A stretch of DNA of 64,000 bases, taken from contig JBATNG010000045.1 in the NCBI GenBank assembly GCA_049290235.1, forward strand, positions 12,717-76,716, read 5' to 3'. The notes under the pieces were generated by a model. It did not search any database, was not told where the DNA came from, and saw nothing but the letters and a program-made list of their open reading frames with translations. This document shows positions 1,508 through 63,674 of the stretch, in pieces. The position numbers were made by a program, and so were the translations under genes. Numbering within the stretch: the stretch's first letter is position 1; the number at the start of each line of letters is the position of its first letter. The stretch is from Candidatus Moraniibacteriota bacterium (GTDB taxonomy: Bacteria; Patescibacteriota; Minisyncoccia; Moranbacterales; UBA1568).

Positions 1508-3598
1508 ATGTCACTCGAAGTCGTGCTCGCGGTCGCCGTACTCATGCTCATCTGTATTGGCACGTATTTTGTCGCCGGCCGCTTGAAATTGCCGTATACA
1601 GTGCTGCTCGTCATCGTCGGCTCTATCCTGGTGCCACTCACGCATTTTGCATTCTTTCATTTCATCAAAAGTTTCGAACTGACTCCCGAGCTCCTCTTCT
1701 TTGTCTTTCTGCCGGTGCTCATCTTTGAGTCGGCCTACAACATGAACATGCGTGAGATGGCCGAAAATGTCCGATCGATCTCGTGGCTGTCAGTTGTGAG
1801 TCTTGTCGTTTCTGCCTTTTTCGTGGCGTTCGCGCTTTTCTGGGGACTCAAGCTTATCGGTTTCCCGGTGCCGTTCATGGCGACGCTCGTTTTCGGGGCG
1901 CTCATCTCGGCGACGGATCCGGTGGCGGTGCTCGCATTGTTCAAGGAATTCGGCGTGCCGCGCCGTCTCTCACTCATCTTTGAGGGGGAGAGCTTGTTCA
2001 ATGATGGTACTTCGCTTGCTCTCTTTCTCATCGTCCTTGATGTAGCGATGGCCGGGTTCTCGGGACTCGGGAGCATACTCGAGGGTGTATTCATGTTTAC
2101 GACGATGGTGCTTGGTGGTGGCATTTTCGGGCTCTTGATGGGGTTCGTATTTTCCAAGATCATCGGTAAAGTGCAGGATAATGAGCACGTTGAAATCACG
2201 CTCACCATGCTCGTGGCGCATCTCACCTTCATACTCTCCGAACTCATTTCGCATCATCTCGTCCTCTTCGGCCAAGAAATCAGATTTTCGTCGATTATCG
2301 CGACCGTGATGGCGTCGATGGTCATCGGCAACTATGGTCGGTTCAAGATTTCGCCGCGCGTCGAGGAATACATGGAGAAGTTCTGGGGGTACTTCGCCTT
2401 CGTGGCAAACTCGCTCGTTTTCATTCTGATGGGACTACTCTTTGCTGATCTTCCGATTCATTTTGATCAATTTATCGTGCCGATGCTCATGACGGTTGTG
2501 GTGGTGATGATTGGCCGAGGACTGTCCATTTATCCAGTCGTGGCTATGGTGAATCGACTGAAGAAAGAAGATCAGATTCCGATGTCGTGGCAGCATCTGC
2601 TCGCGTGGGGGAGTCTCCGCGGAGCGCTGGCGGTCACGATGGTGCTTCTCATCCCGGATACACTTACACTTCCAGGTTGGAATTATGACTTTACCGTGAA
2701 GGAATTCATCGCGGCCATCACGATTGGCTGTATCTACTTCACTCTCCTCATCAAAGCGACCTCGATCGGAGCGATGATCAAGAAGATGAAACTGTCGGAT
2801 CTGACATCTCTCGAGACCGTGGAGTACCATGAGTGCTCGGCCCTGGTCTATCAGGAGGCGCTCGAGAAGCTCGCCGATTTCCATGAGAAAGGATACGTGA
2901 AGAGCGATGTGTTTGCCCGACTCAAACAAGAATACACGGAGCGTTACGAGAAGTCGGTAGCGGCCTGTCAGTCGCTCTTTACGGCGACCCCGAGCGACAT
3001 GAACCGAGCACTGCAGATGTATGCTCTCGGCATGGAAAAGCGCTTTCTCCGCGAGCTCTACGTCTATCAGGAGATTTCCGAATCGGAATACAAGGAGATT
3101 TTGAACAAGATCGCGATTCAGACGTCGCGAGTTGAGGAGGGAAGGGAGCAAGTATCGCATCATGCGGAGCGCTTCCGTCAGGACTGGTTCGAGACACTTG
3201 TCATGTGGCTGCGGAAGAAGTTCCGTCCAAAACCAGTCAAACAGGAAATGCTCGAGGAATACCGTTACTATCGCGCCCAGGAAGTGGTGCTGGCCAAGGT
3301 GCTCCGGCGTCTAAAGTCACTCTCGGAACGCTTTCCAGGGCTCTACGGAGATGAGGCATCGACAACAGCCGTCATCGCACTGTATGAGGGACTCCGGGTG
3401 GATGCAGAAAAAAAGCGCGACGCCGTAGCAGCAAAAATTGGGACGGAGCTCGCGTATTTGAACGAGTCATTCGGTCGCTATGCGCTTTTTAAGACCGAAG
3501 AATGGATGCTCGAGGAACTCTTGGAAAATGCCATGCTTCCGCGCAAAGTGGGGAATATGCTCTATAATGAGCTGAAGGACGAAGCCTACTCGATTTAG
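1508..3598 (+). CDS. CPA1-family Na+/H+ (cation:proton) antiporter with a large C-terminal cytoplasmic domain
   Basis: The ORF track starts at TTG 1490; the first ATG is 1508 (MSLEVVLAVAVLM...). About 400 aa form a polytopic membrane domain with Na_H_exchanger-like segments (ATDPVAVLALFKEFGVP, FEGESLFNDGTSLALF). About 300 aa of mainly helical soluble C-terminal domain follow. Confidence 0.85.
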   Translation: MSLEVVLAVAVLMLICIGTYFVAGRLKLPYTVLLVIVGSILVPLTHFAFFHFIKSFELTPELLFFVFLPVLIFESAYNMNMREMAENVRSISWLSVVSLVVSAFFVAFALFWGLKLIGFPVPFMATLVFGALISATDPVAVLALFKEFGVPRRLSLIFEGESLFNDGTSLALFLIVLDVAMAGFSGLGSILEGVFMFTTMVLGGGIFGLLMGFVFSKIIGKVQDNEHVEITLTMLVAHLTFILSELISHHLVLFGQEIRFSSIIATVMASMVIGNYGRFKISPRVEEYMEKFWGYFAFVANSLVFILMGLLFADLPIHFDQFIVPMLMTVVVVMIGRGLSIYPVVAMVNRLKKEDQIPMSWQHLLAWGSLRGALAVTMVLLIPDTLTLPGWNYDFTVKEFIAAITIGCIYFTLLIKATSIGAMIKKMKLSDLTSLETVEYHECSALVYQEALEKLADFHEKGYVKSDVFARLKQEYTERYEKSVAACQSLFTATPSDMNRALQMYALGMEKRFLRELYVYQEISESEYKEILNKIAIQTSRVEEGREQVSHHAERFRQDWFETLVMWLRKKFRPKPVKQEMLEEYRYYRAQEVVLAKVLRRLKSLSERFPGLYGDEASTTAVIALYEGLRVDAEKKRDAVAAKIGTELAYLNESFGRYALFKTEEWMLEELLENAMLPRKVGNMLYNELKDEAYSI

Positions 3599-3615
3599 CT
3601 AAACGACAATACTCT

Positions 3616-4230
3616 ATGGATTTCTTCGGCATCGACATGGTGGAGGCAATCAAGACGATCGGGTATATTGGTCTCTTCGCGATTGTCTTCGCTGAGACAG
3701 GCCTTTTCCTCGGGTTCTTCTTCCCGGGTGACAGCTTGCTCTTCGTCGCGGGGGTGCTCGCGGCGCAGGGGTTCTTCTCGCTCCCGCTGCTCCTCGTGAT
3801 CCTGTTTGTCGCGGCGTTCACGGGGAACATGGTCGGTTACTGGTTCGGGGCTTTGGTCGGTCCGAAAATTTTCTCGCGCGAAGATTCGCTCTTGTTTCGG
3901 AAATCCCATATCCTGAAAGCACAGGCTTTCTATGAACGCTATGGCGGCAAGACCATCGTCTTGGCTCGTTTCATTCCGATCGTCCGAACCTTTGCCCCGA
4001 TCGTCGCTGGTGTCGGACGTATGCACTATGGCACATTCGCTTTTTTCAATTTCATCGGGGCACTTCTGTGGTCGGTGGGCTTGACGACTTTGGCCTACTA
4101 TCTCGGGAGCTTGATCGAGGATATCGATCGATTCCTCCTCCCGATTGTCATCCTGATCATATTCCTATCGGTCTTGCCTGGTGTGTTCGAATATTGGCGC
4201 GACCGACGTCAGGCTTTGCGTCAGTCATAG
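3616..4230 (+). CDS. DedA/SNARE-associated (VTT domain) family membrane protein
   Basis: 204 aa. GYIGLFAIVFAETGLFLGFFFPGDSLLFVAGVLAAQG and ERYGGKTIVLARFIPIVRTFAPIVAGVGRMHY match the DedA signature. Confidence 0.85.
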   Translation: MDFFGIDMVEAIKTIGYIGLFAIVFAETGLFLGFFFPGDSLLFVAGVLAAQGFFSLPLLLVILFVAAFTGNMVGYWFGALVGPKIFSREDSLLFRKSHILKAQAFYERYGGKTIVLARFIPIVRTFAPIVAGVGRMHYGTFAFFNFIGALLWSVGLTTLAYYLGSLIEDIDRFLLPIVILIIFLSVLPGVFEYWRDRRQALRQS

Positions 4231-25818: not shown

Positions 25819-26328
25819 ATGATCCTCATCCTCGACAATCTCCGGAGTGCGTACAATGTCGGGGCCCTGTTCCGGTCGGCGGATGGCGTGGGTGTGACGC
25901 ATGTCTATCTGGTCGGGATTACGCCTGTCCCACCCAAGAAGGGGCAGCTCTTTCTCTCTGCGGCCGAGAAAGCATTGCAAAAGACGGCGCTCGGTGCCGA
26001 GTCGGTCATACCGTGGTCGAGCGTGAAATCCCTCGCCCGTCTCATCGCTCGGCTCAAACGTGACGGGTATGAGATCATCGCACTCGAGGAAGGATCGGCC
26101 AGAGCGAGTCTCGACTATCGGGCTTGGCGTCCCAAGCGCGGGTATGAGCCGGCCTTGATCGTCGGCAATGAAGTCACCGGTCTGGATGAGAAAGCACTCG
26201 CGTGTGCGGACACCCTCCTCCATCTGCCGATGCGGGGGATGAAACATTCGCTCAATGTGTCCGTGGCGGGTAGTATTGCTATGTACCACCTCTCGGCTAC
26301 AATGGAAATGAGAGTCTCTCGTGACTAG
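25819..26328 (+). CDS. SpoU/TrmH-family RNA 2'-O-methyltransferase
   Basis: LDNLRSAYNVGALFRSADGVGV...LIVGNEVTGL...HLPMRGMKHSLNVSVAGSIAMY are SPOUT motifs I-III. Confidence 0.85.
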   Translation: MILILDNLRSAYNVGALFRSADGVGVTHVYLVGITPVPPKKGQLFLSAAEKALQKTALGAESVIPWSSVKSLARLIARLKRDGYEIIALEEGSARASLDYRAWRPKRGYEPALIVGNEVTGLDEKALACADTLLHLPMRGMKHSLNVSVAGSIAMYHLSATMEMRVSRD

Positions 26329-26405
26329 GGGATAGTAGCTAGTGACTAGTTACTAGTGTTTAAGAAACGCGCTTACTCTAGTCACTCTTTCTGCTCAAGT
26401 CACTC
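26320..26405. promoter_or_regulatory. cluster of GTGACTAG/CTAGTCAC repeats (putative operator) upstream of the HAD-IB gene
   Basis: GTGACTAG or its reverse complement CTAGTCAC occurs at 26321-26328, 26342-26349, 26378-26385 and 26397-26404, plus the near-palindrome CTAGTTACTAG at 26346-26356. Confidence 0.4.
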
Positions 26406-34161: not shown

Positions 34162-34201
34162 ATGTTGAGAATAAAGAATTACGAATTATGAATTATGAAT
34201 T
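34162..34201. repeat. AT-rich heptamer repeat tract (GAATTAT-like, about 4 copies) between ferredoxin and sufU
   Basis: GAATTACGAATTATGAATTATGAATTTT, running into the sufU stop codon. Confidence 0.6.
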
Positions 34202-34582: not shown

Positions 34583-34693
34583 AAGAAATTTTCAGTTTTC
34601 AATTTCTAATTTTCATTGAATTTTCAAGTCTTCAATTTTGAAATTGATTCATTAAAAATTGATTGGAAATTGAGAACTGGAAATTGAAAATTA
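34583..34693. repeat. AT-rich repeat island inside the suf operon (sufS-sufU spacer)
   Basis: 110 nt at about 25% GC in a 55% GC genome, built from reiterated TTTTCAAT/ATTGAAAA and GAAATTGA units. Confidence 0.6.
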
Positions 34694-52266: not shown

Positions 52267-53229
52267 ATGAATTCTATCAAGAAAGTCCTCATTGCACAGC
52301 CGCACGGGTTTTGTGCGGGGGTCGCTCGAGCGGTGAAGGCGGTGGAGGATACGCTGGCGATATTCGGTGCGCCGGTGTATGTGAAGCATGAGATCGTCCA
52401 CAACAAGCATGTGGTCGATGCGATCACGAAGCAAGGCGCGATCACGGTCGAAACACTCGAGGAAGTGCCGGAGGGTTCGGTGGTCATCTTCTCCGCCCAC
52501 GGTTCGCCGCGCGCTCATTATGAGGTAGCCCGAGAGCGCCAGCTCCATCTCATCGATGCGACCTGTCCGCTGGTGACCAAAGTTCACCTCGAAGTGTTGC
52601 GTTTCATCAAGGAAGGCTATGGGGTCGTGTACATCGGCCACCGCGGTCATATCGAGGGTGTCGGGGTGCTCGGTGAAGCGCCAGGTGTCAGTATTCCGGT
52701 GGTTGAGACGGTCGCAGATGCTGAAGCTTTGACGCTCCCTGAAAGTGAAAAGATGGTCTATCTCACGCAGACGACCCTCTCTATCGATGAGACCCAAGAC
52801 GTCATCGCGGCACTCCGAAAGAAATATCCCCAGATCGTCGCTCCGCCGCTTGAAGATATCTGCTATGCGACAACCAATCGCCAGGAGGCAGCCAAAGCAC
52901 TCGCAAAGACCGTCCCCGTCGTGATCGTCGTCGGATCGGTGACCTCGTCCAACTCCAATCGTTTACGCGAGACGGCCGAGCAAGCCGGTGCCCGGGCCTA
53001 CCTGGTTGATGATGCGAGCGACCTTGAAGCCGCGTGGTTTGATGGCGTTTCAATAGTTGGCGTGACTGGTGGGGCGAGTGCACCCGAGGATCGGATCCAG
53101 ACTGTGATCGACTACTTCACCGGACAAGGGGCGGTCGCCGAACGATTCTCGGTGAAGGAAGAAAAGATGTTCTTCGCGGAACCGGTGGAACTCATGCAGA
53201 TCCGTCGAGAGAGAGCAGCGAAGGTATGA
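52267..53229 (+). CDS. ispH: 4-hydroxy-3-methylbut-2-enyl diphosphate reductase
   Basis: PHGFCAGVARAV, SAHGSP, DATCPLVTKVH, TNRQEAAKALA and GSVTSSNSNRL track E. coli IspH throughout, including the three cluster-ligating Cys. Confidence 0.9.
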   Translation: MNSIKKVLIAQPHGFCAGVARAVKAVEDTLAIFGAPVYVKHEIVHNKHVVDAITKQGAITVETLEEVPEGSVVIFSAHGSPRAHYEVARERQLHLIDATCPLVTKVHLEVLRFIKEGYGVVYIGHRGHIEGVGVLGEAPGVSIPVVETVADAEALTLPESEKMVYLTQTTLSIDETQDVIAALRKKYPQIVAPPLEDICYATTNRQEAAKALAKTVPVVIVVGSVTSSNSNRLRETAEQAGARAYLVDDASDLEAAWFDGVSIVGVTGGASAPEDRIQTVIDYFTGQGAVAERFSVKEEKMFFAEPVELMQIRRERAAKV

Positions 53230-54341
53230 AACTGGCTATTCAAGCGAGCGATCTCGACCATGCCCGGATCGATGGGACCCGGGTCTATGTCCGTGAATTA
53301 CTCAGGCGTTTTGGTACTTTTTCGCCAGAAACAGAGTATGACATCTACCATCGGGGGACCTTCAATCCTTTGCTTGCCCCACCAGATCTCCTCAATTACC
53401 ACGTCAAAACGCTCCCGTTTCCGTACGCCTGGATGCAGACGCGATTCGCGTGGGAGATGTTCCGGTCCCGACCCGATCGGTTGTTTCTGCCGATTCAGGC
53501 GGCTCCAGTGATCTTGCCTCGTGGCTTGACGGTGACAGCGACCATTCACGACCTCGCTTTCCGGCGTTTTCCCGAAACCTTCCCACCGAGCCATCTCCGC
53601 AAACTGAACTTCATGCTCGACACGGTTGTGAGGCAGGCAGATCGGCTGATCGCGGTCTCTGAGTCTACGAAACGTGACTTGCTCGAGTTCTTTCCAACGC
53701 TCGATGCTAGCAAAGTTCAGGTGATTCACCACGGCTTCGATCGCGAGTTTTTCGGTCAGCAGCTTTCAGCTGAGACACTTTCTGCCATCCTCACAACCTA
53801 CCAGCTACAACCTACCAGCTATCTCCTGTATGTCGGAGCCCTGCAGCCACGCAAGAACCTCGTTCGCCTCATCCAGGCTTTTGAGCAGGCGAAAAAAACC
53901 TGCCCGGAGATGCAACTTGTGCTCGCTGGTGAACCGGCCTGGCTTTCCGAAAGTATTCTTGCGGCGAGAGCAGCGAGCCCTTTCAAAGACGATATCATCT
54001 TGACGGGACGTGTTTCGTTTGAGAATCTGCGCGCGCTCTACCAGGGTGCACGTCTCTTCGCTTTCCCGTCACTCTATGAGGGATTCGGTCTCCCGCTCCT
54101 TGAAGCTTTCGCGTCTGGCGTGCCGGTATTGACTGCCGATAATTCCAGCCTGCGCGAAGTAGCGGGTGACGGTGCGCTCTATGTCGATGCTAGGAATGAG
54201 GCTGATATCGCCGAAAAACTCAGCCAGTTGTGGAGTGATGTAGAGCTCCGTGATGCGCTCCGGGTGAAAGCGAATGCTGAACTTGCTCGATTTTCTTGGG
54301 ATCGGACCGCATGTGCGACACTTGATGTGATTCTCCGTTAG
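53226..54341 (+). CDS. GT4-family glycosyltransferase
   Basis: LLYVGALQPRKNLVRLIQAF...LVLAGEP...LFAFPSLYEGFGLPLLEAFASGVPVLTADNSSLREVAGD is the GT4/Glycos_transf_1 E-x7-E region. Confidence 0.8.
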   Translation: MKLAIQASDLDHARIDGTRVYVRELLRRFGTFSPETEYDIYHRGTFNPLLAPPDLLNYHVKTLPFPYAWMQTRFAWEMFRSRPDRLFLPIQAAPVILPRGLTVTATIHDLAFRRFPETFPPSHLRKLNFMLDTVVRQADRLIAVSESTKRDLLEFFPTLDASKVQVIHHGFDREFFGQQLSAETLSAILTTYQLQPTSYLLYVGALQPRKNLVRLIQAFEQAKKTCPEMQLVLAGEPAWLSESILAARAASPFKDDIILTGRVSFENLRALYQGARLFAFPSLYEGFGLPLLEAFASGVPVLTADNSSLREVAGDGALYVDARNEADIAEKLSQLWSDVELRDALRVKANAELARFSWDRTACATLDVILR

Positions 54342-56111: not shown

Positions 56112-57851
56112 TCAGTCAGTTATCTCAAAGAGGATGGCGTCTCGCGTGACGGTCTGTCTGATGGGCCGGGCGAAAGGTCTCGGGGCGGTGAGTGTCGGCC
56201 AGACGAACGAGAGTACTTCGACGGGGAGTAGGCGGTCTCCGAAGGTGGCAGCGAATTGACCGACGGTGTCCTCGGTCGTCAACAGATAGACGCGGTCAAA
56301 GGCGTTCCGATCGAGTCGGGCATAATCTTCGGGATTGAAGAAATAGGCTGCGGATTTCCCATCGAGGCTCATGAGCGGTCCGGCGATCATCGCAAAGGGG
56401 TCACCGGAGGATTCACGATCGATGAGGATGAGATCACGGGCGGTGAATTGGTCACCGAAGTTTTCCGCCTGAGCGCGGAGGGTCTGGTACTCGATCACTG
56501 AGAGGGCCTGGTAGGCTGGCCAGCACTGGAGGACAAAGAGCAAGCCGAAGCCGATGAGGGCGATAGTGTGTTTCCGAGGAGTGTGGATTCTCTCGATCAT
56601 CGACTGCCACAATACAATGGTCGCGAGCAAGAAAAGTGGGAAGAGCGTAAAGACATAGCGGCGCAAGAGCCACGGGTGATCGTCGGAGATATGACCATCG
56701 AAGAGATAGACGAAGGTCGGGAGTGCGAGCAGCACCGGGATGAGAAGTGCGAAACGGCGTCGCATGATACCGAAGGCAAGCGATGCCAAGCCGAGAATGA
56801 AGACAGGAAACAGCCCGTAGGAAATGAGGATCGGTCCGAGTCGTGGCTCTCCGCTCCCTGTGCCGGCGATGCCGAGGGTGTGCCAATATTTTAGGGCCGC
56901 TTTGCCGATCATGGTGTAGAACGGCAGATTCATGAAAAGATCGCGGAGGAAGAGAAAGCCGAGGAAGAGGAGGACGGGGATGGCCCAGACCTTGGGGAGG
57001 GCGAAGAGGTGGGCGCGCAGTTTGGGATGCCAGAGGATAAACCCGAGCGCGAGCGGCGCGATGACGAAGCCCTCGATGCGCGTCAGGGCGAGGAGAAACC
57101 CGGTGATGAGAAGACAAGGGAGGACTCGTCGATCATCTTCGCGCGCGAGGCGGATGAGTGCGACCGTGAGCGTGAGAAAGAGGAGGAGCGCGAGATTTTC
57201 CGTCAGCGTCATCTGGGTGAGCCAGACCGTGAAGAAGGATGTCGAGAAGAGAGCTGTCCCAAAGAGCGCGGTGTGGCGGGTCACGAAGAGGGAGCCGAGA
57301 TCGAAGAATGTCCAACTGGAGAGAATGAAGAGCAGCGCGTTGGCGATAAGGAGACCGGTCGGGCCGAACCACTGCACAAAGAGCGCGAGGTATGAGATGT
57401 AGCCGAGTGGGAATTGAGTGATGAGTGCCCCGCTTTCGGTGTAGGAGAAGCCGGGGAAGTTGAGTGCGCGACCAGGACCATAGATGGCAAAGAAAGCGTC
57501 AGAGACAGGTGTCCGGAAGGCGAGCTCATGACCGTGCGCGAGTTCCCAGGCGGCGAGAGCGATTGATCCTTGATCGCGGCCGGTGAAGACAGTTGGCTCG
57601 GTTCGAAGGGCGATGAGTAGGGCGAAGAGCACCAGCGCACCGATGAGACCGAGTCGTGCCCAGTCACATTCCTGATACAGCACGAATAATGCCAGACCAA
57701 AACCGCCCAAGAGCAGTCCACCAGCCACCCAGGTCAGTGCCGGATAGAACCAGCCGAACAGCGCGAGCGCGAGCGCGAGGATGAGGGCGAGGACGAAACC
57801 AGAGAGGGCGATGAGCCAAGGCGAGCGGGTCCAGAGACGGGATGGATTCAT
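56112..57851 (-). CDS. large polytopic membrane protein, putative GT-C-fold glycosyltransferase (ArnT/PMT-like)
   Basis: 579 aa with about 12 TM helices in the N-terminal two-thirds and a soluble C-terminal domain. The topology suggests dolichyl/undecaprenyl-phosphate-sugar-dependent transferases. Assignment by architecture only. Confidence 0.4.
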   Translation of the reverse strand: MNPSRLWTRSPWLIALSGFVLALILALALALFGWFYPALTWVAGGLLLGGFGLALFVLYQECDWARLGLIGALVLFALLIALRTEPTVFTGRDQGSIALAAWELAHGHELAFRTPVSDAFFAIYGPGRALNFPGFSYTESGALITQFPLGYISYLALFVQWFGPTGLLIANALLFILSSWTFFDLGSLFVTRHTALFGTALFSTSFFTVWLTQMTLTENLALLLFLTLTVALIRLAREDDRRVLPCLLITGFLLALTRIEGFVIAPLALGFILWHPKLRAHLFALPKVWAIPVLLFLGFLFLRDLFMNLPFYTMIGKAALKYWHTLGIAGTGSGEPRLGPILISYGLFPVFILGLASLAFGIMRRRFALLIPVLLALPTFVYLFDGHISDDHPWLLRRYVFTLFPLFLLATIVLWQSMIERIHTPRKHTIALIGFGLLFVLQCWPAYQALSVIEYQTLRAQAENFGDQFTARDLILIDRESSGDPFAMIAGPLMSLDGKSAAYFFNPEDYARLDRNAFDRVYLLTTEDTVGQFAATFGDRLLPVEVLSFVWPTLTAPRPFARPIRQTVTRDAILFEITD

Positions 57852-57957
57852 AGTGGCTCTATTATACGCAAAAACGGGTCGCGCTTCAATTTACGAAAGG
57901 ATGTCGAAACGGTACAATAGGAGCAGCCTCTACAGCTCAACACACAAAGCGTCTAGC

Positions 57958-60411
57958 ATGAACTTCTTTCTCTGGTACTATACCATCGGCATTCTCTCGA
58001 TTTCGCGGATCGCGGGCAATTATATCCGATACGTCTTGCACCGCTTCAATATCGTCGGTTTGTTTCGTACACTCATCTCGCCCTGGAAACGTGACATCAG
58101 TTTCCATACCTGGCGAGGATTGCACCCGATCCTCTTCGCACAGGCACTGGTGAACAATATCATCACTCGACTTCTCGGGGCCATCGTCCGCTCCGTCGTC
58201 CTCATGTCTGGTTTCGGAGCGATCGCCCTCATGGCGGTACTGGTCATCTTGTTGTCGCTCTTCGCCGCGGTCGCCCCGCTCGTCCTCATCGGCGGAAGTG
58301 TCATCATCGGGGCGGTCTTTGGGACCATCGCCGGCATGGCTGCTTTCGTCATGGCTATCATTTTGACGATCGTCGCAGTCTTGACTTGGCATGAGTACGA
58401 GCGCGGCCGTATCGACTACGCCCTCTTGCCCGAGCATGCACCGTGGCGTGACCGGGCTCTGATGCGCCTCGGGCTGTCGCCGAAATCTGTCACTGCTGAA
58501 ACGATCGGCGTTCCCGAAAAACGGGCTGCTTTCCTGACGGAGAAGCGAATCGCACCCGAGCACTTCGACCGCGCCTGGGCCATCGAAGGTGCAGTCTACG
58601 CCGCGAAGGACCGGCTCAGCCGGTTTTGGGAGTGGGAACAGCTTCGTCGGGACCCGAGAATCGGGAAGTATTGGGCTTATGCCTACACGCCGCGTCTCGA
58701 TCACTACATCATGGATCTCTCAGAACATGATTTCAGTAATTATGCGCGGCAGGAATTGATCGGGCGCGAATCAGTGATGGAGATGCTCACGCTCACCTTG
58801 TCGCGGCCAAATGACAATAGCGCGCTCCTCATCGGGGACCCCGGTATCGGCAAACGCTCGATCGTCCATGCCTTCGCCCGCTGCATCCGCGAAAACCGTT
58901 TCACTGATACGGTCATCGATGAGGCCCGCGTCGCCATCTTTGACCTGGGCCAAGTCATCTCGGACGCTCGATCGCAGGGGATCGATCCCAAAGGGCTCCT
59001 GCGTGACCTCTTGAATGGCACGGTCTATGCCGGTAATGTTGTCTTGGTTATCGAAAACATCAATCTGTTCCTCGATCCCGAAAGCGATATGGCGGTCGGG
59101 GATGTACTGAATGATTATCTGTCACTGCCAACGTGTCGCATCATCGGACTCATGACCGGAGAGGCTTATCACACGCTCGGTCAGCGACAGATTCCCGCGC
59201 TCAAGTACTTTGAGGCCATTCAAGTGCCCGAGCCGACGAAAGACGAAGTCATCGCTATCCTCGTTGATACATTCAAACCGCTCGAGCGGAATCGCCCGGT
59301 CTTCACGATTCAGGCCCTGCACGCGATCATCGACGGCGCTGAGCGCTACAATTGGGAGATGCCATTTCCGGAGCGAGCCGTCGATCTCGCACAGGAAGTC
59401 CTCATTTATTGGGAGAAGCACCCCGATCTCGCCTTCATCGAACGGACGGTCGTCGAGGATTTCCTCGAAGCGAAGTCCGGGATACCGATGGGCGAAGCGA
59501 ACGAAGAGGAACGGCAGAAACTGCTCCATCTCGAAGCACTCCTCCATGAACGCGTCATCGGTCAAGCGGAGGCAATTAAACAAATGTCCGAGGCCTTTCG
59601 CAAGGCGCGCACAGGACTGGGGAATGACAAGAAACCGATCGGCTCTTTTCTCTTCCTCGGTCCCACCGGTGTGGGCAAGACGGAGACGGCCAAAGCCCTC
59701 GCGGCGGTCTATTTCGGTGACGAAGACCGGATGGTGCGGCTTGATATGAGTGAATTCCAGACGCCGCAGTCGATCGACGAGCTCATCGGCTCGGCTGAGA
59801 TGAATGTCCAGGGACGCATGACGTCCCTCATCAAAGAACGACCGTACTCCATATTGCTCCTCGACGAACTTGAAAAGGCGTATCCGCGGGCACTTGATCT
59901 TTTCTTGCAGATTCTCGATGAAGGCTATGTGACCGATGGCTTCGGCCACAAGGTGAACTTCCGGAACACGATCGTCATCGCGACGTCCAATGCCGGCGCC
60001 GATCTCATCCATGTCGCGACGAATGCTGGCCGCTCGATGGTCGATATCAAAGACGAGCTGATGGATGCGATTATTGCCAAAGGCACTTTCCGTCCGGAAT
60101 TCCTCAATCGTTTCGATGGTGTCATCTTGTTCAATTCCCTGACGTCCGAGGAAATGGAACAAGTTACGGCCTTGAAACTGCAGGCCTTTGCCGACAAGCT
60201 GTACAAGGAGAAGAAAGTGAAACTTACCTTTACGCCCGAAGCGGTGCGCACGGTCGTGGCAAAGGGCTATGAACGCGAATATGGCGCCCGCTCTATCAAT
60301 CGATATATCGCCGACGTCGTGGAAGACACCATCGTGAAACGTCTCCTCGAAGGCACGCTCGCGGAAGGGACCGAAGTGACATTTACTGAGCACGATCTGG
60401 GAGAAGAGTAG
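57958..60411 (+). CDS. membrane-anchored Hsp100/Clp-like AAA+ ATPase with degenerate first nucleotide-binding domain
   Basis: Start at ATG 57958 (MNFFLWYYTIGILS), downstream of a TACAAT -10 at 57914. About 230 aa of N-terminal domain with 3-4 TM helices. D1 is ClpB-like but has GDPGIGKRS (GKT becomes GKR) and VLVIENIN (Walker B DE becomes EN). D2 is canonical: FLGPTGVGKTETAKALA, ILLLDELEKAYPRALDLFLQILDEGYVTD, sensor IVIATSNAG. No obvious ClpP-docking loop. Confidence 0.7.
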   Translation: MNFFLWYYTIGILSISRIAGNYIRYVLHRFNIVGLFRTLISPWKRDISFHTWRGLHPILFAQALVNNIITRLLGAIVRSVVLMSGFGAIALMAVLVILLSLFAAVAPLVLIGGSVIIGAVFGTIAGMAAFVMAIILTIVAVLTWHEYERGRIDYALLPEHAPWRDRALMRLGLSPKSVTAETIGVPEKRAAFLTEKRIAPEHFDRAWAIEGAVYAAKDRLSRFWEWEQLRRDPRIGKYWAYAYTPRLDHYIMDLSEHDFSNYARQELIGRESVMEMLTLTLSRPNDNSALLIGDPGIGKRSIVHAFARCIRENRFTDTVIDEARVAIFDLGQVISDARSQGIDPKGLLRDLLNGTVYAGNVVLVIENINLFLDPESDMAVGDVLNDYLSLPTCRIIGLMTGEAYHTLGQRQIPALKYFEAIQVPEPTKDEVIAILVDTFKPLERNRPVFTIQALHAIIDGAERYNWEMPFPERAVDLAQEVLIYWEKHPDLAFIERTVVEDFLEAKSGIPMGEANEEERQKLLHLEALLHERVIGQAEAIKQMSEAFRKARTGLGNDKKPIGSFLFLGPTGVGKTETAKALAAVYFGDEDRMVRLDMSEFQTPQSIDELIGSAEMNVQGRMTSLIKERPYSILLLDELEKAYPRALDLFLQILDEGYVTDGFGHKVNFRNTIVIATSNAGADLIHVATNAGRSMVDIKDELMDAIIAKGTFRPEFLNRFDGVILFNSLTSEEMEQVTALKLQAFADKLYKEKKVKLTFTPEAVRTVVAKGYEREYGARSINRYIADVVEDTIVKRLLEGTLAEGTEVTFTEHDLGEE

Positions 60412-60466: not shown

Positions 60467-61684
60467 ATGACTGAAACGCTTGGGGGGAAAAAGCTGAAAG
60501 TGCTCATGATCGCGCCGACTCCGTTCTTTTCGGATCGGGGGACGCATATTCGCATTTTGGAGGAAGCGCTGGCTTTGACTCGGCGTGGCTATGTGGTCAC
60601 GATCGCGACGTACCATATCGGTCAGGATTTGCACGAGCCACTCGCGGCCCAGGTGGAAGTCCGCCGGATCCGCCGACTGCTGTTTTGGTACAAGAAGCTT
60701 GAAGCGGGGCCGGACTGGCAGAAGCTCATCCTCGACCTCATGCTCATCCGGAAAGTGTTCTTCCTCGCGCGGACGACACGGCCCGATATCCTTCATGGGC
60801 ACCTGCATGAGGGCGTGCTCATCGGTTGGATCGTGCAGCGTGCACTGTTTTGGCGCAAGATGTTGCTCGTCGGGGATTTCCACGGCAGTCTGACCAAAGA
60901 AATGGTTTCGCATGCTTACCTGCAGACGGGTTTGCTTCGTCGGCTCTTCGAGTGGGTAGAGCAAGTTGTCGATAATCTGGGCGATATGGCGGTGACGAGC
61001 TCATGGCGGAATACCCGCGAAATCGCAGTCATCCGCAAGAAGAATGCACCGATCACCGTGCCCGACGGGGTCGGCACTGATCAGACAGATACCCTGGACT
61101 TCCCGCGAGCCGCGCTTCGCCGCAAGTATGGCATCGCTGAGGAAGCACTCGTGGTCACATATACCGGTGCTCTGGTCGCCAACAAAGGTGTCCGCCACTT
61201 CGTGATCGCGATCCCGCTGATTCTCGCTGGTGACCCGCGGGCACATGTCGTAGTGGCAGGTTTCCCTTGGAATGAAGTCGCGCCGTATTTCGAGGGAAAA
61301 AGTTGGATGGACCGGGTGACGTCGATTACGCCCTTGCCGTATTTTTCGCTGCGGGAAATCCTCGCGATGAGCGATGTCGGGATCGATCCCAAAGAAGAGG
61401 GTGTCGGCCAGGCGAGCGGAAAAATGCTGCAGTATATGGGGGCGGGACTACCGGTCGTGTGTTTTGATACCGAGAACAACCGTGAATACCTCTCGGATGG
61501 TGGCGAGTACGCACATCAAATCTCTGGTGCCGGACTCTCTGAAGCCGTGTTGCGACTGCTCCGTGATCCCGAACTTCGCAAGAGGAAAGGTGCCGCCAAC
61601 CGAGTCCGGGCACGCGAAAAATTCTCCTGGGACCGGACCGGAGAAATCTTGGATGAGGTGTATCAGAAAGCGCTCTCGATATGA
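60467..61684 (+). CDS. GT4-family glycosyltransferase
   Basis: AAAGGGG 4 nt before the ATG. KVLMIAPTPFFSDRGTHIRILEEALAL, later VTYTGALVANKGVRHFV...GFPW and GIDPKEEGVGQASGKMLQYMGAGLPVVC. Confidence 0.75.
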   Translation: MTETLGGKKLKVLMIAPTPFFSDRGTHIRILEEALALTRRGYVVTIATYHIGQDLHEPLAAQVEVRRIRRLLFWYKKLEAGPDWQKLILDLMLIRKVFFLARTTRPDILHGHLHEGVLIGWIVQRALFWRKMLLVGDFHGSLTKEMVSHAYLQTGLLRRLFEWVEQVVDNLGDMAVTSSWRNTREIAVIRKKNAPITVPDGVGTDQTDTLDFPRAALRRKYGIAEEALVVTYTGALVANKGVRHFVIAIPLILAGDPRAHVVVAGFPWNEVAPYFEGKSWMDRVTSITPLPYFSLREILAMSDVGIDPKEEGVGQASGKMLQYMGAGLPVVCFDTENNREYLSDGGEYAHQISGAGLSEAVLRLLRDPELRKRKGAANRVRAREKFSWDRTGEILDEVYQKALSI

Positions 61685-62880
61685 AAACCTGGCTCATCAA
61701 AATCGGGAAGGCCTGGAGTGTGATCCGGCGCGACGGATTAGTTCGGGGTGGGCGGCGGGTGCTGGAGGCATTCACGGCGCTCTTTGCTCATGTCGAGCCA
61801 GGCGATATCCTGTTCATCTCGGGCGGAGTGGGGGACAGTGCGCGCTATCGGACGCAGCATGTTGCCGAAGAACTTCGGCTACATGGTTTCCGGGCATCGG
61901 TCACCGTGCAGGATAACCCACGGCTCGTGTCGTACGCGGACCAGTTCCAGGTATTCGTCCTGCACCGCGTCCTCATGACTGTGGCAATCGCCCGGCTCAT
62001 AGCTCGGCTGAAAGAAGTTGGGAAGACAATTATTTTCGAGACCGATGATCTCGTGTACGATCCGGAGTTTCTCGTGCATATGGATTACTGGCATCAGATG
62101 AATGTGCTCGAGCGCAAGCTCTACGAGCACGGTGTCGGCGGCGAGATCCTGGCTGATCCATATGTGACGACAGCGACGACGACAACCGGCTTCCTCGCTG
62201 ACAAACTTCGAGAGAAAGGGAAGTCGGTCTATCTCGTGCCGAACCGACTGTCGCAGCAAGATGTGTTGTGGGCGGATGAAGCTTTGAAGAAGAATCACGA
62301 ATCACGAATCACGAATCACGAAGGAGAAAAAATTGTTCGTATGGGTTATCTCTCCGGCACGCCGAGTCACAACAAAGACTTTGCGACTATCACGCCCGCT
62401 CTCATCACGCTGTTTGAGAAGTATCCCGAGATGCGATTGGTGCTCGCAGGGCCGCTGGATACCGAAGACCGGCTCCAAGTGTATGCTGAGCGGATCGAGT
62501 GTCTGCCGTTTGTGCCACGGGCCAGACTCTTTGCCAACATTGCAACACTTGACATTAATCTCGCACCGCTTGAAATCGACAATCCGTTCTGTGAATCGAA
62601 ATCCGAATTGAAATTCTTTGAAGCAGGGATCGTCTCGGTGCCGACCGTGGCGGCTGCGACACGCACCTATTGTGAAGCGATCACCGACGGAACCGATGGC
62701 TTCGTCGCGGCGAACACAGATGAATGGGTAGCAAAGATCGGTCGACTCATCGCCGAGCCTGAGCTCCGCGCTCGGATCGGCCACGCCGCGCGCGAGACGG
62801 CCCTCGCACAGTATACCAACGCGAATGCCAAGAACGAGGCGTACTATGAGTTTCTGCGTTCCGTTATGAAACACGACTGA
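61681..62880 (+). CDS. glycosyltransferase (GT4-like C-terminal domain) containing an in-frame heptanucleotide repeat
   Basis: The C-terminal half (MGYLSGTPSHNKDF...RLVLAGP...FFEAGIVSVPTVAAATRTYCEAITDGTDGFVA) resembles the GT-B donor-binding domain. The AATCACG x4 repeat at 62293-62320 encodes NHESRITNHE. Confidence 0.65.
   Translation: MKTWLIKIGKAWSVIRRDGLVRGGRRVLEAFTALFAHVEPGDILFISGGVGDSARYRTQHVAEELRLHGFRASVTVQDNPRLVSYADQFQVFVLHRVLMTVAIARLIARLKEVGKTIIFETDDLVYDPEFLVHMDYWHQMNVLERKLYEHGVGGEILADPYVTTATTTTGFLADKLREKGKSVYLVPNRLSQQDVLWADEALKKNHESRITNHEGEKIVRMGYLSGTPSHNKDFATITPALITLFEKYPEMRLVLAGPLDTEDRLQVYAERIECLPFVPRARLFANIATLDINLAPLEIDNPFCESKSELKFFEAGIVSVPTVAAATRTYCEAITDGTDGFVAANTDEWVAKIGRLIAEPELRARIGHAARETALAQYTNANAKNEAYYEFLRSVMKHD
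62293..62320 (+). repeat. tandem heptanucleotide repeat (AATCACG)x4 inside the glycosyltransferase CDS
   Basis: Four perfect head-to-tail copies, 28 nt. The unit length is not a multiple of 3. Confidence 0.9.
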
Positions 62881-62882
62881 AT

Positions 62883-63674
62883 ATGGCCAAACGCATTTTC
62901 CCGGAAAGTCAGCTCGCTCACCACTACCTCGACGGACTGTCCGGACTAGAGATCGGTGCGTCGGCGCATAATCCGTTCGGTCTCACGACGCAGAATGTCG
63001 ACATCGCGGATGAGTTCAATCGGAGTACCTACAAGAAGCGTGAGCTCGACATTTCGGGTGAGGTGGCGCCGATCGACATCATCGCGCCGGGGGACACATT
63101 GCCCGTACCGGATGCTTCGGTAGATTTCGTCATCTCGTCGCATGTCCTCGAGCATTTTGCGGATCCGATTGCCGCGCTGCTTGAGTGGTACCGCGTCGTC
63201 CGATCGGGTGGGTATGTCTATCTGATCGTGCCGCACCGGGAGCGCACGTTTGATCGCGTCAAACCGGCGACGACTTTTACCAATCTCCGAGCCCGGCATG
63301 CTGGGACCGAAGCCGTCACGCCGGACCCCGAAACTGGGCACTGCAGTTACTGGGTGACCGAGGACGTTATCGAGTTGGTGCGCGGCATCGGACTGGATTG
63401 GGCACTGGTTGATTTCCAGGACACGGATGATAAGATAGGGAACGGCTTTGCGGTCGTCCTTCGCAAGGGGGCACTCACAGTCGAGGAGCGCGAGCGTATC
63501 GACGCCAAGTGGGCGGCGCACCTCGCGAAGCGCCAAGTGTTTACTGAGTCGTTCTTCCGACCAGGATCGCCGGTAGGGCGGGCGGCGGAGCTCGTGGGCA
63601 ATGCGTACCGTGAAATCATTCGCAGTGGACCAGCAGGACTCTTTCGACGGATCAAGGAATTTATCCATAAATAA
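62883..63674 (+). CDS. class I SAM-dependent methyltransferase
   Basis: LDGLSGLEIGAS (motif I-like), VDFVISSHVLEHFADP, LRVVRSGGYVYLIVP (Methyltransf_11/23-like). Confidence 0.75.
   Translation: MAKRIFPESQLAHHYLDGLSGLEIGASAHNPFGLTTQNVDIADEFNRSTYKKRELDISGEVAPIDIIAPGDTLPVPDASVDFVISSHVLEHFADPIAALLEWYRVVRSGGYVYLIVPHRERTFDRVKPATTFTNLRARHAGTEAVTPDPETGHCSYWVTEDVIELVRGIGLDWALVDFQDTDDKIGNGFAVVLRKGALTVEERERIDAKWAAHLAKRQVFTESFFRPGSPVGRAAELVGNAYREIIRSGPAGLFRRIKEFIHK

Follow-up and report, generated by a model that had tools for sequence, protein, structure and literature searches.

A recurrent, apparently frame-locked heptanucleotide repeat at the hinge of predicted GT-B glycosyltransferases in a Candidate Phyla Radiation lineage

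As a rule, the central part of a conserved gene is purged of repeats that are prone to frameshifts. The window analysed here, a stretch of 64,000 nucleotides (nt) from Candidatus Moraniibacteriota bacterium (contig JBATNG010000045.1), raises the question of how such a repeat could persist across a broad uncultured lineage in a core glycosyltransferase of the envelope, at one position in its hinge. Four exact copies of the heptamer AATCACG occupy positions 62293-62320 of the window, within a glycosyltransferase gene whose codon N205 begins at 62293. A preceding sequence-only reading had reported these four copies, which the sequence itself, Tandem Repeats Finder (TRF) and our own scan reproduced, and had proposed that they form a slipped-strand phase-variation switch. 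The comparison with orthologs suggests another answer, to which we would give slightly less than an even chance: the tract may be a heptanucleotide microsatellite that is long-lived, evolves in concert and sits in a permissive GT-B hinge, with fixed changes limited by the reading frame to three-unit steps and one-unit slips purged. The features on which the argument rests are as follows.

61681..62880, + strand: host gene, encoding a predicted GT-B (GT4-like) glycosyltransferase of 399 amino acids (aa), conserved across Moranbacteria
61681..62286, + strand: N-terminal (acceptor-side) Rossmann-like domain, residues 1-202, kept in any frameshifted product
62242..62349, + strand: inter-domain hinge, codons N188-Y223, with helix 192-211, loop 212-218 and the start of strand 219-223 in the AlphaFold2 (AF2) model
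62290..62324, + strand: array in the phase common to relatives, five units AAGAATC ACGAATC ACGAATC ACGAATC ACGAAGG
62292..62322, + strand: perfect period-7 tract, 31 nt, 4.43 copies of GAATCAC, coding for N205-E214 (NHESRITNHE)
62335..62880, + strand: C-terminal (nucleotide-sugar-binding) domain, residues 219-399, lost after a one- or two-unit change

The window sequence at 62284-62326 is TTGAAGAA-(GAATCAC)x4-GAA-GGAG. TRF gave the perfect tract a score of 62 with 100% matches, the top score in the window, and an independent scan was concordant; in the five-unit reading (62290-62324), units 1 and 5 are degenerate. The lag-7 matched run of the tract is 24 nt long, as compared with a maximum of 15 nt, at any period from 4 to 12, among 300 dinucleotide-preserving shuffles of the window, and its analytic expectation is ~2e-9. 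A chance origin of the tract is thus ruled out by the shuffles. No further AATCACG array exists elsewhere in the 64 kb. The tract had also been described as the only perfect multi-copy short tandem repeat in coding DNA of the window; it is real, but the claim of uniqueness does not quite hold, since a perfect (ACAACCTACCAGCT)x2.07 array lies in another GT4 gene and (AGCGCG)x3.3 adjoins the start of the AAA+ gene (see below).

The earlier placement of the repeat inside a glycosyltransferase gene agrees with the Pfam matches, the AF2 model and the Foldseek search, and by these Pfam and predicted-structure criteria the host protein is a GT4-like glycosyltransferase of predicted GT-B fold. Its C-terminal half (residues 231-382) matches the Pfam models Glyco_trans_1_2, Glyco_trans_1_4 and Glycos_transf_1, the bit scores of the C-domain being 42.3 for PF13524 (cut-off 25), 39.5 for PF13692 (27) and 33.6 for PF00534 (26.4). 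The AF2 model (predicted local distance difference test, pLDDT, 85; predicted template-modelling score, pTM, 0.84) has two Rossmann-like domains, with alternating strands and helices in both halves, and was matched by Foldseek to MshA, PimA, BshA, TreT and HepE (E ~1e-12, TM ~0.6, probability 1.00). The likeness to the GT4 GT-B enzymes MshA, PimA, BshA and TreT consists in the two Rossmann-like domains with a hinge and in the group-1 Pfam models of the C-domain, whereas sequence identity to them is merely 12-15% and the host N-domain has no Pfam match. An NCBIfam search with the host protein returned no model at the cut-off. An identical protein is recorded as 'glycosyltransferase [Candidatus Moraniibacteriota bacterium]', and the source genome therefore belongs to the Candidate Phyla Radiation (CPR). 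The search found 1501 homologs, and relatives of the gene account for at least 552 coding stretches in species-representative genomes and at least 267 matching stretches in metagenomes, which marks it as a core gene of the lineage.

The residues encoded by the repeat (205-214) form, in the model, the end of helix 192-211 and part of the loop ahead of strand 219-223. They lie within a hypervariable, length-variable part of the hinge that comprises approximately residues 203-218 (62287-62334). In an alignment of 47 homologs, the length variation of the family was confined wholly to the hinge, which in the orthologs measures 81-201 nt, and AF2 confidence dips there as well (pLDDT 68 at residues 211-220). 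The hinge is permissive: besides length variation and low model confidence, it tolerates the palindromes and inserts described below.

We retrieved 160 ortholog loci, 80 from species-representative genomes and 80 from metagenome contigs, and further contigs by exact protein (loci and proteins carry the prefixes L and P, respectively). Among 147 distinct ortholog hinges, 25 contained a lag-7 array with a score of at least 10, and 21 one with a score of at least 14 (shuffle expectation, 0.04), while each of the other lags from 3 to 12 was found in zero or one hinge. When perfect period-7 tracts were counted from a matched run of 12 upwards, 14.8 kb of hinge sequence gave 16 and 739 kb of flanks gave 7. 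The position of the arrays is constant, most of them ending 10-26 nt before the Tyr223 codon. Twenty of the 25 are 29-38 nt long, which equals 4.1-5.4 copies, and the reading frame is intact in all 25. Their units vary by lineage (GAATCAC, AAGAATC, CAATCAG, ATTCAAA, CAAGAAA, AAACAAG, GCTACAA, ATGCTCC and AAAACCC, among others) and can be wholly different even between fairly close relatives. About 20 more homologs have a hinge peptide with a seven-residue periodicity that suggests further arrays, likewise in frame; NHQSSIINHQ, for example, would correspond to (AATCATC)n. To judge from these sequences, a coding microsatellite of non-triplet unit, persistent and frame-locked, recurs at the GT-B hinges of a CPR lineage, a pattern that is statistically extreme and unexpected in the middle of a gene.

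Three other sources of the arrays were considered. A genome-wide excess of period 7 does not account for them, the flanks showing periods 6, 7 and 8 at similar low densities. Selection for the peptide at the protein level is at odds with the codons, which track the 7-nt register exactly (AAT, TCA, ATC...), and with the units, which differ between lineages. As for a structural filter, three heptamer units equal seven residues, or two helical turns, and would keep the register of the helix, but this cannot be a strict filter for period 7, since all hinge lengths divisible by 3 occur between 81 and 105 nt. The arrays are either present or absent, with no decay series: array-less hinges showed no residual lag-7 signal, and half-decayed arrays, looked for in these remaining hinges, were not found. 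In many cases the hinges with an array do not exceed the others in length.

Comparisons between relatives bear on how the units turn over. The hinges of the close relatives L002, L003, L005 and L081 are non-repetitive; the closest array-bearing relative, L001 (81% protein identity), retains an array homologous to that of the window, AAGAATC AAGAATC AAGAATC AAGAAGC AAGAAGT. Position 2 of the unit differs between the two in parallel in four units, which is indicative of concerted evolution. An AATCA core is common to relatives, with the last two bases specific to each array (AATCACG, AATCAAG, AATCAGC, AATCATC). Identity within an array at positions that are free to vary between lineages is a signature of slippage or conversion, and not of selection on each unit. 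The sole copy-number difference found concerns P0172 (402 aa) and P0173 (395 aa), which belong to one 90%-identity protein cluster and are 7 residues apart. Their genes, L165 and L164, share 92.6% nt identity and have five and two units, respectively, a difference of exactly 21 nt that keeps the frame. For the window species, the assembly records (the window, L161 and L162) have one and the same gene sequence, with 4.43 copies. In the strain pair L166/L169, copy number is unchanged at 1.9% gene divergence, and one hinge peptide is common to the five protein variants of that species.

The consequences of copy-number change can be computed for the window gene. Loss of one unit leads to a product of 307 aa and gain of one to a product of 247 aa, both without the C-terminal domain, as anticipated by the earlier remark that 7 is not divisible by 3 and that a one-copy change would frameshift the C-terminal GT-B domain. 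The loss or gain of three units keeps the frame and gives 392 or 406 aa; minus three units, the hinge of the window gene would measure 87 nt, which is among the commonest lengths in the family. In the explanation that we favour, the array would be turned over by replication slippage, or by units being gained and lost in an equivalent way, which would keep the units alike within an array while the unit sequence drifts between lineages. Selection for an intact gene would let only frame-preserving copy numbers become fixed, so that the observed changes would be three-unit steps (21 nt, 7 amino acids) by which the helix and loop of the hinge grow or shrink. Slips of a single unit would have to arise too, as null alleles of 247 or 307 aa lacking the C-domain, and would be purged instead of serving as a used OFF state. 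In the window genome, the array would then act as a hot spot at which the hinge varies in length, and knock-outs would come from it at a low rate at most. We infer slippage as the mechanism, purifying selection behind the frame-locking and common ancestry of the arrays behind the constant period. If neutral, the arrays would represent an unusually clear natural case of microsatellite concerted evolution under frame constraint and a marker of extreme tolerance of the GT-B hinge.

A number of observations weigh against this explanation. Period 7 is exclusive in the hinges, and the in-frame periods 6 and 9, of which each step would be neutral, are absent, which a neutral-junk model does not predict. 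The intergenic arrays of these loci, by comparison, have periods 7, 8, 9 and 10 at counts of 12, 8, 5 and 3, and the exclusivity of period 7 in the hinges is a concrete puzzle for studies of mutational mechanisms. The missing decay series implies active homogenisation or selection. Moreover, making the units identical needs one- or two-unit steps, through frameshifted states or compensating indels. About 4.4 copies are typical also of intergenic arrays, which are free of any frame, so that frame-locking alone is insufficient. The presence of heptad arrays in a second GT-B gene and its homolog hints at something specific to these genes. Finally, our retrieval placed intact genes first, and OFF alleles are therefore under-sampled.

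The second GT-B gene and its array are located in the window as follows.

53226-54341, + strand: second GT4 gene, with the Pfam N-domain at 67-174 and the C-domain at 199-349
53793..53821, + strand: perfect (ACAACCTACCAGCT)x2.07, equal to 4.1 alternating heptads, in codons 190-199 of the second GT4 gene; TRF periods 14 and 7

This array translates as TTYQLQPTSYLLYVG and stands directly before the first strand of the C-domain, in the hinge equivalent to that of the host gene. A change by one unit would put the gene out of frame, with the unit taken as either 14 nt or 7 nt. P0248 (locus L170, 876-929), a 42%-identical homolog of the second GT4, has ~7.5 GTCGAAA-like heptads and a 25-nt x3 repeat in the same hinge. 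Three GT-B genes were recognised in the window, and two of them have heptad hinge arrays.

The immediate neighbours of the host gene are the following.

60467..61684, + strand: upstream GT4 glycosyltransferase gene, without array, whose stop overlaps the start of the host gene
62883..63674, + strand: downstream class-I methyltransferase gene of the same glycan cluster

A gene for an NAD-dependent epimerase/dehydratase of this cluster follows just past the end of the window. With a GT4, a methyltransferase and an epimerase/dehydratase as neighbours, the assignment of the locus to an envelope-glycosylation cluster by the sequence-only reading holds. Further upstream lies an AAA+/ClpB-like gene (57781-60411) with a predicted hydrophobic N-terminal region, a gene that is conserved upstream of the glycosyltransferase pair in many loci; a perfect (AGCGCG)x3.3 at 57760-57779 is situated directly upstream of its annotated ATG.

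The foremost alternative is that the array is a contingency locus, kept by selection for reversible one-unit ON/OFF switching of a surface glycan, which would help an episymbiotic CPR bacterium to evade phages or to vary its contact with the host. We regard this as doubtful, though not far-fetched. The unit is non-triplet, one-unit changes truncate the enzyme and the gene lies within a glycan cluster; as in contingency loci, the tract is a non-triplet repeat within an open reading frame (ORF) whose changes would alter expression. Heptanucleotide tracts are known to mediate phase variation (PMC2651432). In many lineages one site is strongly and specifically enriched in a frameshift-prone period while in-frame periods are absent, contrary to the general rule that genes avoid mutable repeats in their middle (PMC3315296). 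The arrays also stay homogeneous, without decay, and their presence in two of the three recognised GT-B genes of the window recalls the multi-gene phasomes of Haemophilus, Neisseria and Campylobacter. The 4.4 copies exceed the permissive detection threshold of at least three units for Haemophilus influenzae, but are far below the 13-38 copies of the verified tracts (PMC2651432). Copy number is narrow (4.1-5.4) and the same between strains, its sole change is in frame, and the host gene belongs to the widely conserved core of the lineage, all of which speaks against a switch.

Nor did the alleles reveal an OFF state. At every locus, one tblastn match extended across both domains and the hinge, that of L004 containing an in-frame stop. 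No array-caused frameshift (OFF) allele was found in the ~170 loci or among 111 truncated database proteins, a soft negative, as retrieval favoured intact genes. A search with the N-domain only gave 45 truncated homologs, three of them ending in the hinge, none through a change in heptamer copy number. A search with the C-domain only gave 66 fragments, in which the splits P0142/P0192, P0140/P0176 and P0121/P0175 were at homopolymers or elsewhere and none was at the array. P0142/P0192 and P0140/P0176, together with P0133, P0101 and P0253, were accordingly rejected as OFF alleles, their frameshifts being at homopolymers or other sites. P0133 and P0101, which are unrelated homologs, are frameshifted at the same spot, directly after the conserved KSELKFFEAG motif of the C-domain.

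Two further candidates failed for other reasons. The hinge of L004 (CAVZUR010000004.1, 3560-3660) contains two compensating 1-nt indels, outside any array, between which ~75 nt are read in another frame with an in-frame stop, the gene being called as P0121 and P0175; this disruption is probably due to long-read homopolymer errors (a long-read metagenome-assembled genome, MAG, is suspected from the contig naming), with a real pseudogene as the alternative. The hinge truncation of P0127/L163 is no copy-number change either: its sequence diverges after a palindrome, through an insertion or in a chimeric contig.

In the assemblies compared, we thus saw neither frameshifting copy-number variation between strains nor a coexistence of ON and OFF alleles among genomes, and a literature search linking Patescibacteria to repeat-mediated phase variation found no paper. 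Of the switch proposed by the sequence-only reading, the premises and a slippage-type behaviour stand (the concerted changes in L001 and the L165/L164 indel), and the ON/OFF function is unsupported, with OFF alleles missing and copy number uniform. That reading had named a uniform copy number, together with absence of the repeat from close relatives, as grounds for giving up the switch. Copies are indeed uniform in the assemblies and most close relatives are repeat-free; L001 keeps a homologous array, so that these grounds are half present. Phase variation is mechanistically possible, as switching at low frequency, and lacks positive support.

In a broader form, which we hold to be unlikely and marginally more so than a contingency locus, the heptad arrays of GT-B hinges would constitute a mutational device that selection maintains in Moranbacteria and related CPR bacteria. 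They would act as a frameshift ON/OFF switch of a glycan or as a quantised switch of hinge length by 7 residues, conserved for very long and in more than one glycosyltransferase family per genome. If the arrays are selected, they would offer CPR bacteria, which are dependent on host contact and exposed to phages, a stochastic means to vary or tune their surface glycans. A mutational device of this kind, if true, would be the first evidence of programmed hypermutable loci in the Candidate Phyla Radiation.

Arrays of similar make-up occur outside coding regions. In the window and in AT-rich relatives, arrays of 3-5 copies with periods 7-10 are found in short spacers that immediately precede start codons. 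The window has intergenic imperfect arrays of 4-8 heptads at 34168-34201, 34587-34692 and 26321-26358, with units that are GAATTAT-like, AATTTTC with the inverted partner GAAATTG, or GTGACTA. They fill short spacers directly upstream of the start codons of ferredoxin, NifU and HAD-hydrolase genes; in the ferredoxin and NifU spacers, no obvious Shine-Dalgarno-like motif is seen between the array and the ATG. Intergenic units of 8 nt and 9 nt (AGTTAACG, TTAACGTT and GTTTGTAAG), in up to 9.3 copies, are present in L049 (122-200, 4950-5021, 5335-5369), L034 (4200-4225, 5214-5253) and L103 (1258-1341), and L049 has a composite array of heptads and octads twice, in opposite orientation. In L043, L045 and L062, small 23S-rRNA-IVP genes (PF05635, bAvd-like), which are inserted between epimerase and ABC-2 transporter genes, have heptad arrays in both orientations at their two ends or close by.

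L043 2863-2935, 5323-5350 and 5704-5731: arrays flanking the PF05635 gene
L045 5283-5310 and 5709-5740: arrays flanking the PF05635 gene
L062 5261-5288 and 5665-5696: arrays flanking the PF05635 gene

The hinge unit recurs in flanking arrays of L043, L045 and L132, with 11 own-unit hits against 3.0 expected; the L043 hinge unit, AGTCATC, is found again in four flanking arrays. A genome-wide heptad family sharing the window unit was rejected, being absent from the window and from 21 kb around the L007 ortholog, where no other array of any kind was found. The nearby bAvd-like genes also raised the possibility of a diversity-generating retroelement target; nothing in the data pointed to one and no repeat that could be its template came to notice, although no search aimed at it was made.

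These intergenic arrays bring up a further alternative, which seems to us improbable, namely that the hinge array is a cis-acting element. By analogy with omega/ParB of pSM19035, at least four contiguous heptads would be bound cooperatively by a small DNA-binding protein and would serve as an internal operator, a roadblock or a centromere-like site in the only tolerant spot of the operon. The ribbon-helix-helix protein omega/ParB(pSM19035) binds 7-10 heptads of the sequence 5'-WATCACW-3' and requires at least four contiguous ones (PMC9499535). The window supplies four exact, unspaced heptads, the 7-bp period and the ~4-5 contiguous copies fit the needs of omega/ParB, and AATCACG agrees with WATCACW at 6 of 7 positions, which could be coincidence, the orthologs having unrelated units. 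A regulatory or centromere-like role would also suit the 3-5-copy arrays of periods 7-9 just upstream of start codons in the window and its relatives, often in inverted pairs, the sharing of units between hinge and flanks in L043, L045 and L132, and the equal copy number of coding and non-coding arrays. However, positions that vary freely are identical within arrays, which points to slippage and not to selection for binding, and units differ completely between fairly close relatives instead of following one heptad consensus shared by the sites. There is no second AATCACG array in the 64 kb and no other array in the 21 kb around L007, and no cognate protein was identified, a systematic search for one not having been made.

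The array is also intragenic, and a scan of 61500-63200 found no promoter-like site, so that it overlaps no recognisable promoter. No Rfam family, no terminator-like signal and no RNA structure (z = -0.03) was detected at the window array, and we discarded an internal promoter, a terminator, a known RNA family and an RNA structure as its role. A GGAG motif is located 14 nt ahead of ATG(M221) in the window, but an internal translation start with a Shine-Dalgarno sequence after the array is unsupported, the downstream sequences read having no conserved in-frame start.

Ortholog hinges contain palindromic DNA as well. Long palindromes are enriched there, with z < -3 in 7.5% of hinges and 1% of control segments. 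Perfect palindromes with stems of 10-23 bp occur in the translated hinges of L102/L042 (~3590-3660), L120, L144, L148, L124, L128, L137, L094, L088 and L066/L068, the stem in L102 being 23 bp, and compensatory changes preserve the stem between L066 and L068 (CTTGAGGTC/GACCTCAAG as against CTCGAGGAC/GTCCTCGAG). The hinges of L006, L033, L037, L092 and L106 have inserts of 40-110 nt with internal inverted repeats, which encode peptides such as CHSERSEES..., VIASEARQSS... and CHSGLDPES... and which seem to resemble translated repetitive extragenic palindromic (REP)-like or miniature palindromic elements. L163 (JGI Ga0210036_1057216, 1480-1667), a 1.7-kb contig apparently of the L042/L102 species, diverges exactly at the hinge palindrome of the intact allele and continues as AT-rich DNA with the end of an oppositely oriented ORF; it is either an insertion allele or a chimeric assembly.

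On the strength of such structures the hinge could be a landing pad, at which heptad arrays and palindromes would arrive through insertion, through ectopic conversion with intergenic copies as donors or as the footprints left by small cassettes, and not by local slippage. We rate this as improbable too, a shade below a cis-acting element. It would accommodate the long palindromes and palindromic inserts, the divergence of L163 exactly at the palindrome of L042/L102, the arrays at the ends of 23S-rRNA-IVP genes in L043, L045 and L062 with the hinge unit common to them in L043 and L045, and the all-or-none occurrence of arrays in hinges that are often no longer than others. Yet the arrays of the window and L001 are clearly homologous and have changed unit by unit in place, and L165 and L164 differ by whole units within the array. 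GC-richer genomes, that of the window included, have no donor arrays nearby, no mobility gene is associated, and the 1.7-kb contig L163 may be chimeric.

Chance or an assembly artefact without biological meaning we practically dismiss: four copies are few and De Bruijn assemblers can collapse repeats longer than k, but none of 300 shuffles reached the run, expected at ~2e-9, the tract is common to separate assembly records (the window, L161 and L162), and arrays recur in MAGs and contigs of many studies, always in frame, which random collapse would not yield.

The Neisseria gene pglE, which encodes a pilin-glycosylation glycosyltransferase, contains a heptanucleotide tract. In H. influenzae, 7-bp tracts lie upstream of hmw1A and hmw2A, (AATTTTG)14 is found inside hmw1A, and the verified phase-variable heptanucleotide tracts have 13-38 copies (PMC2651432). 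The window tract resembles such contingency loci in its 7-nt unit, in its location in or adjoining a gene for a surface structure, in the frameshift caused by one unit and in the presumed slipped-strand mispairing. It differs from them in that the known tracts, at 13-38 copies, vary between strains and occur in ON and OFF states, whereas the window tract has 4.4 copies, is constant and is always in frame, and stands at a mid-gene hinge in a core gene of an uncultured CPR lineage. With the omega/ParB(pSM19035) sites it shares unspaced 7-bp repeats in at least four copies, and the direct and inverted layout of those sites resembles that of the intergenic arrays described here. The omega/ParB sites, located on a Firmicute plasmid, overlap with promoters and follow a single conserved heptad, whereas the window array is translated and the units of its orthologs differ. 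A known counterpart to the microsatellite reading that we favour is given by frame-constrained coding microsatellites (PMC3315296), which likewise are indel hot spots within ORFs, at indel-tolerant sites, with frameshifts filtered by purifying selection. Arrays of the window type are set apart from these by being non-triplet, approximately a hundredfold enriched at one mid-gene site, persistent across deep divergence and, as it appears, subject to concerted evolution.

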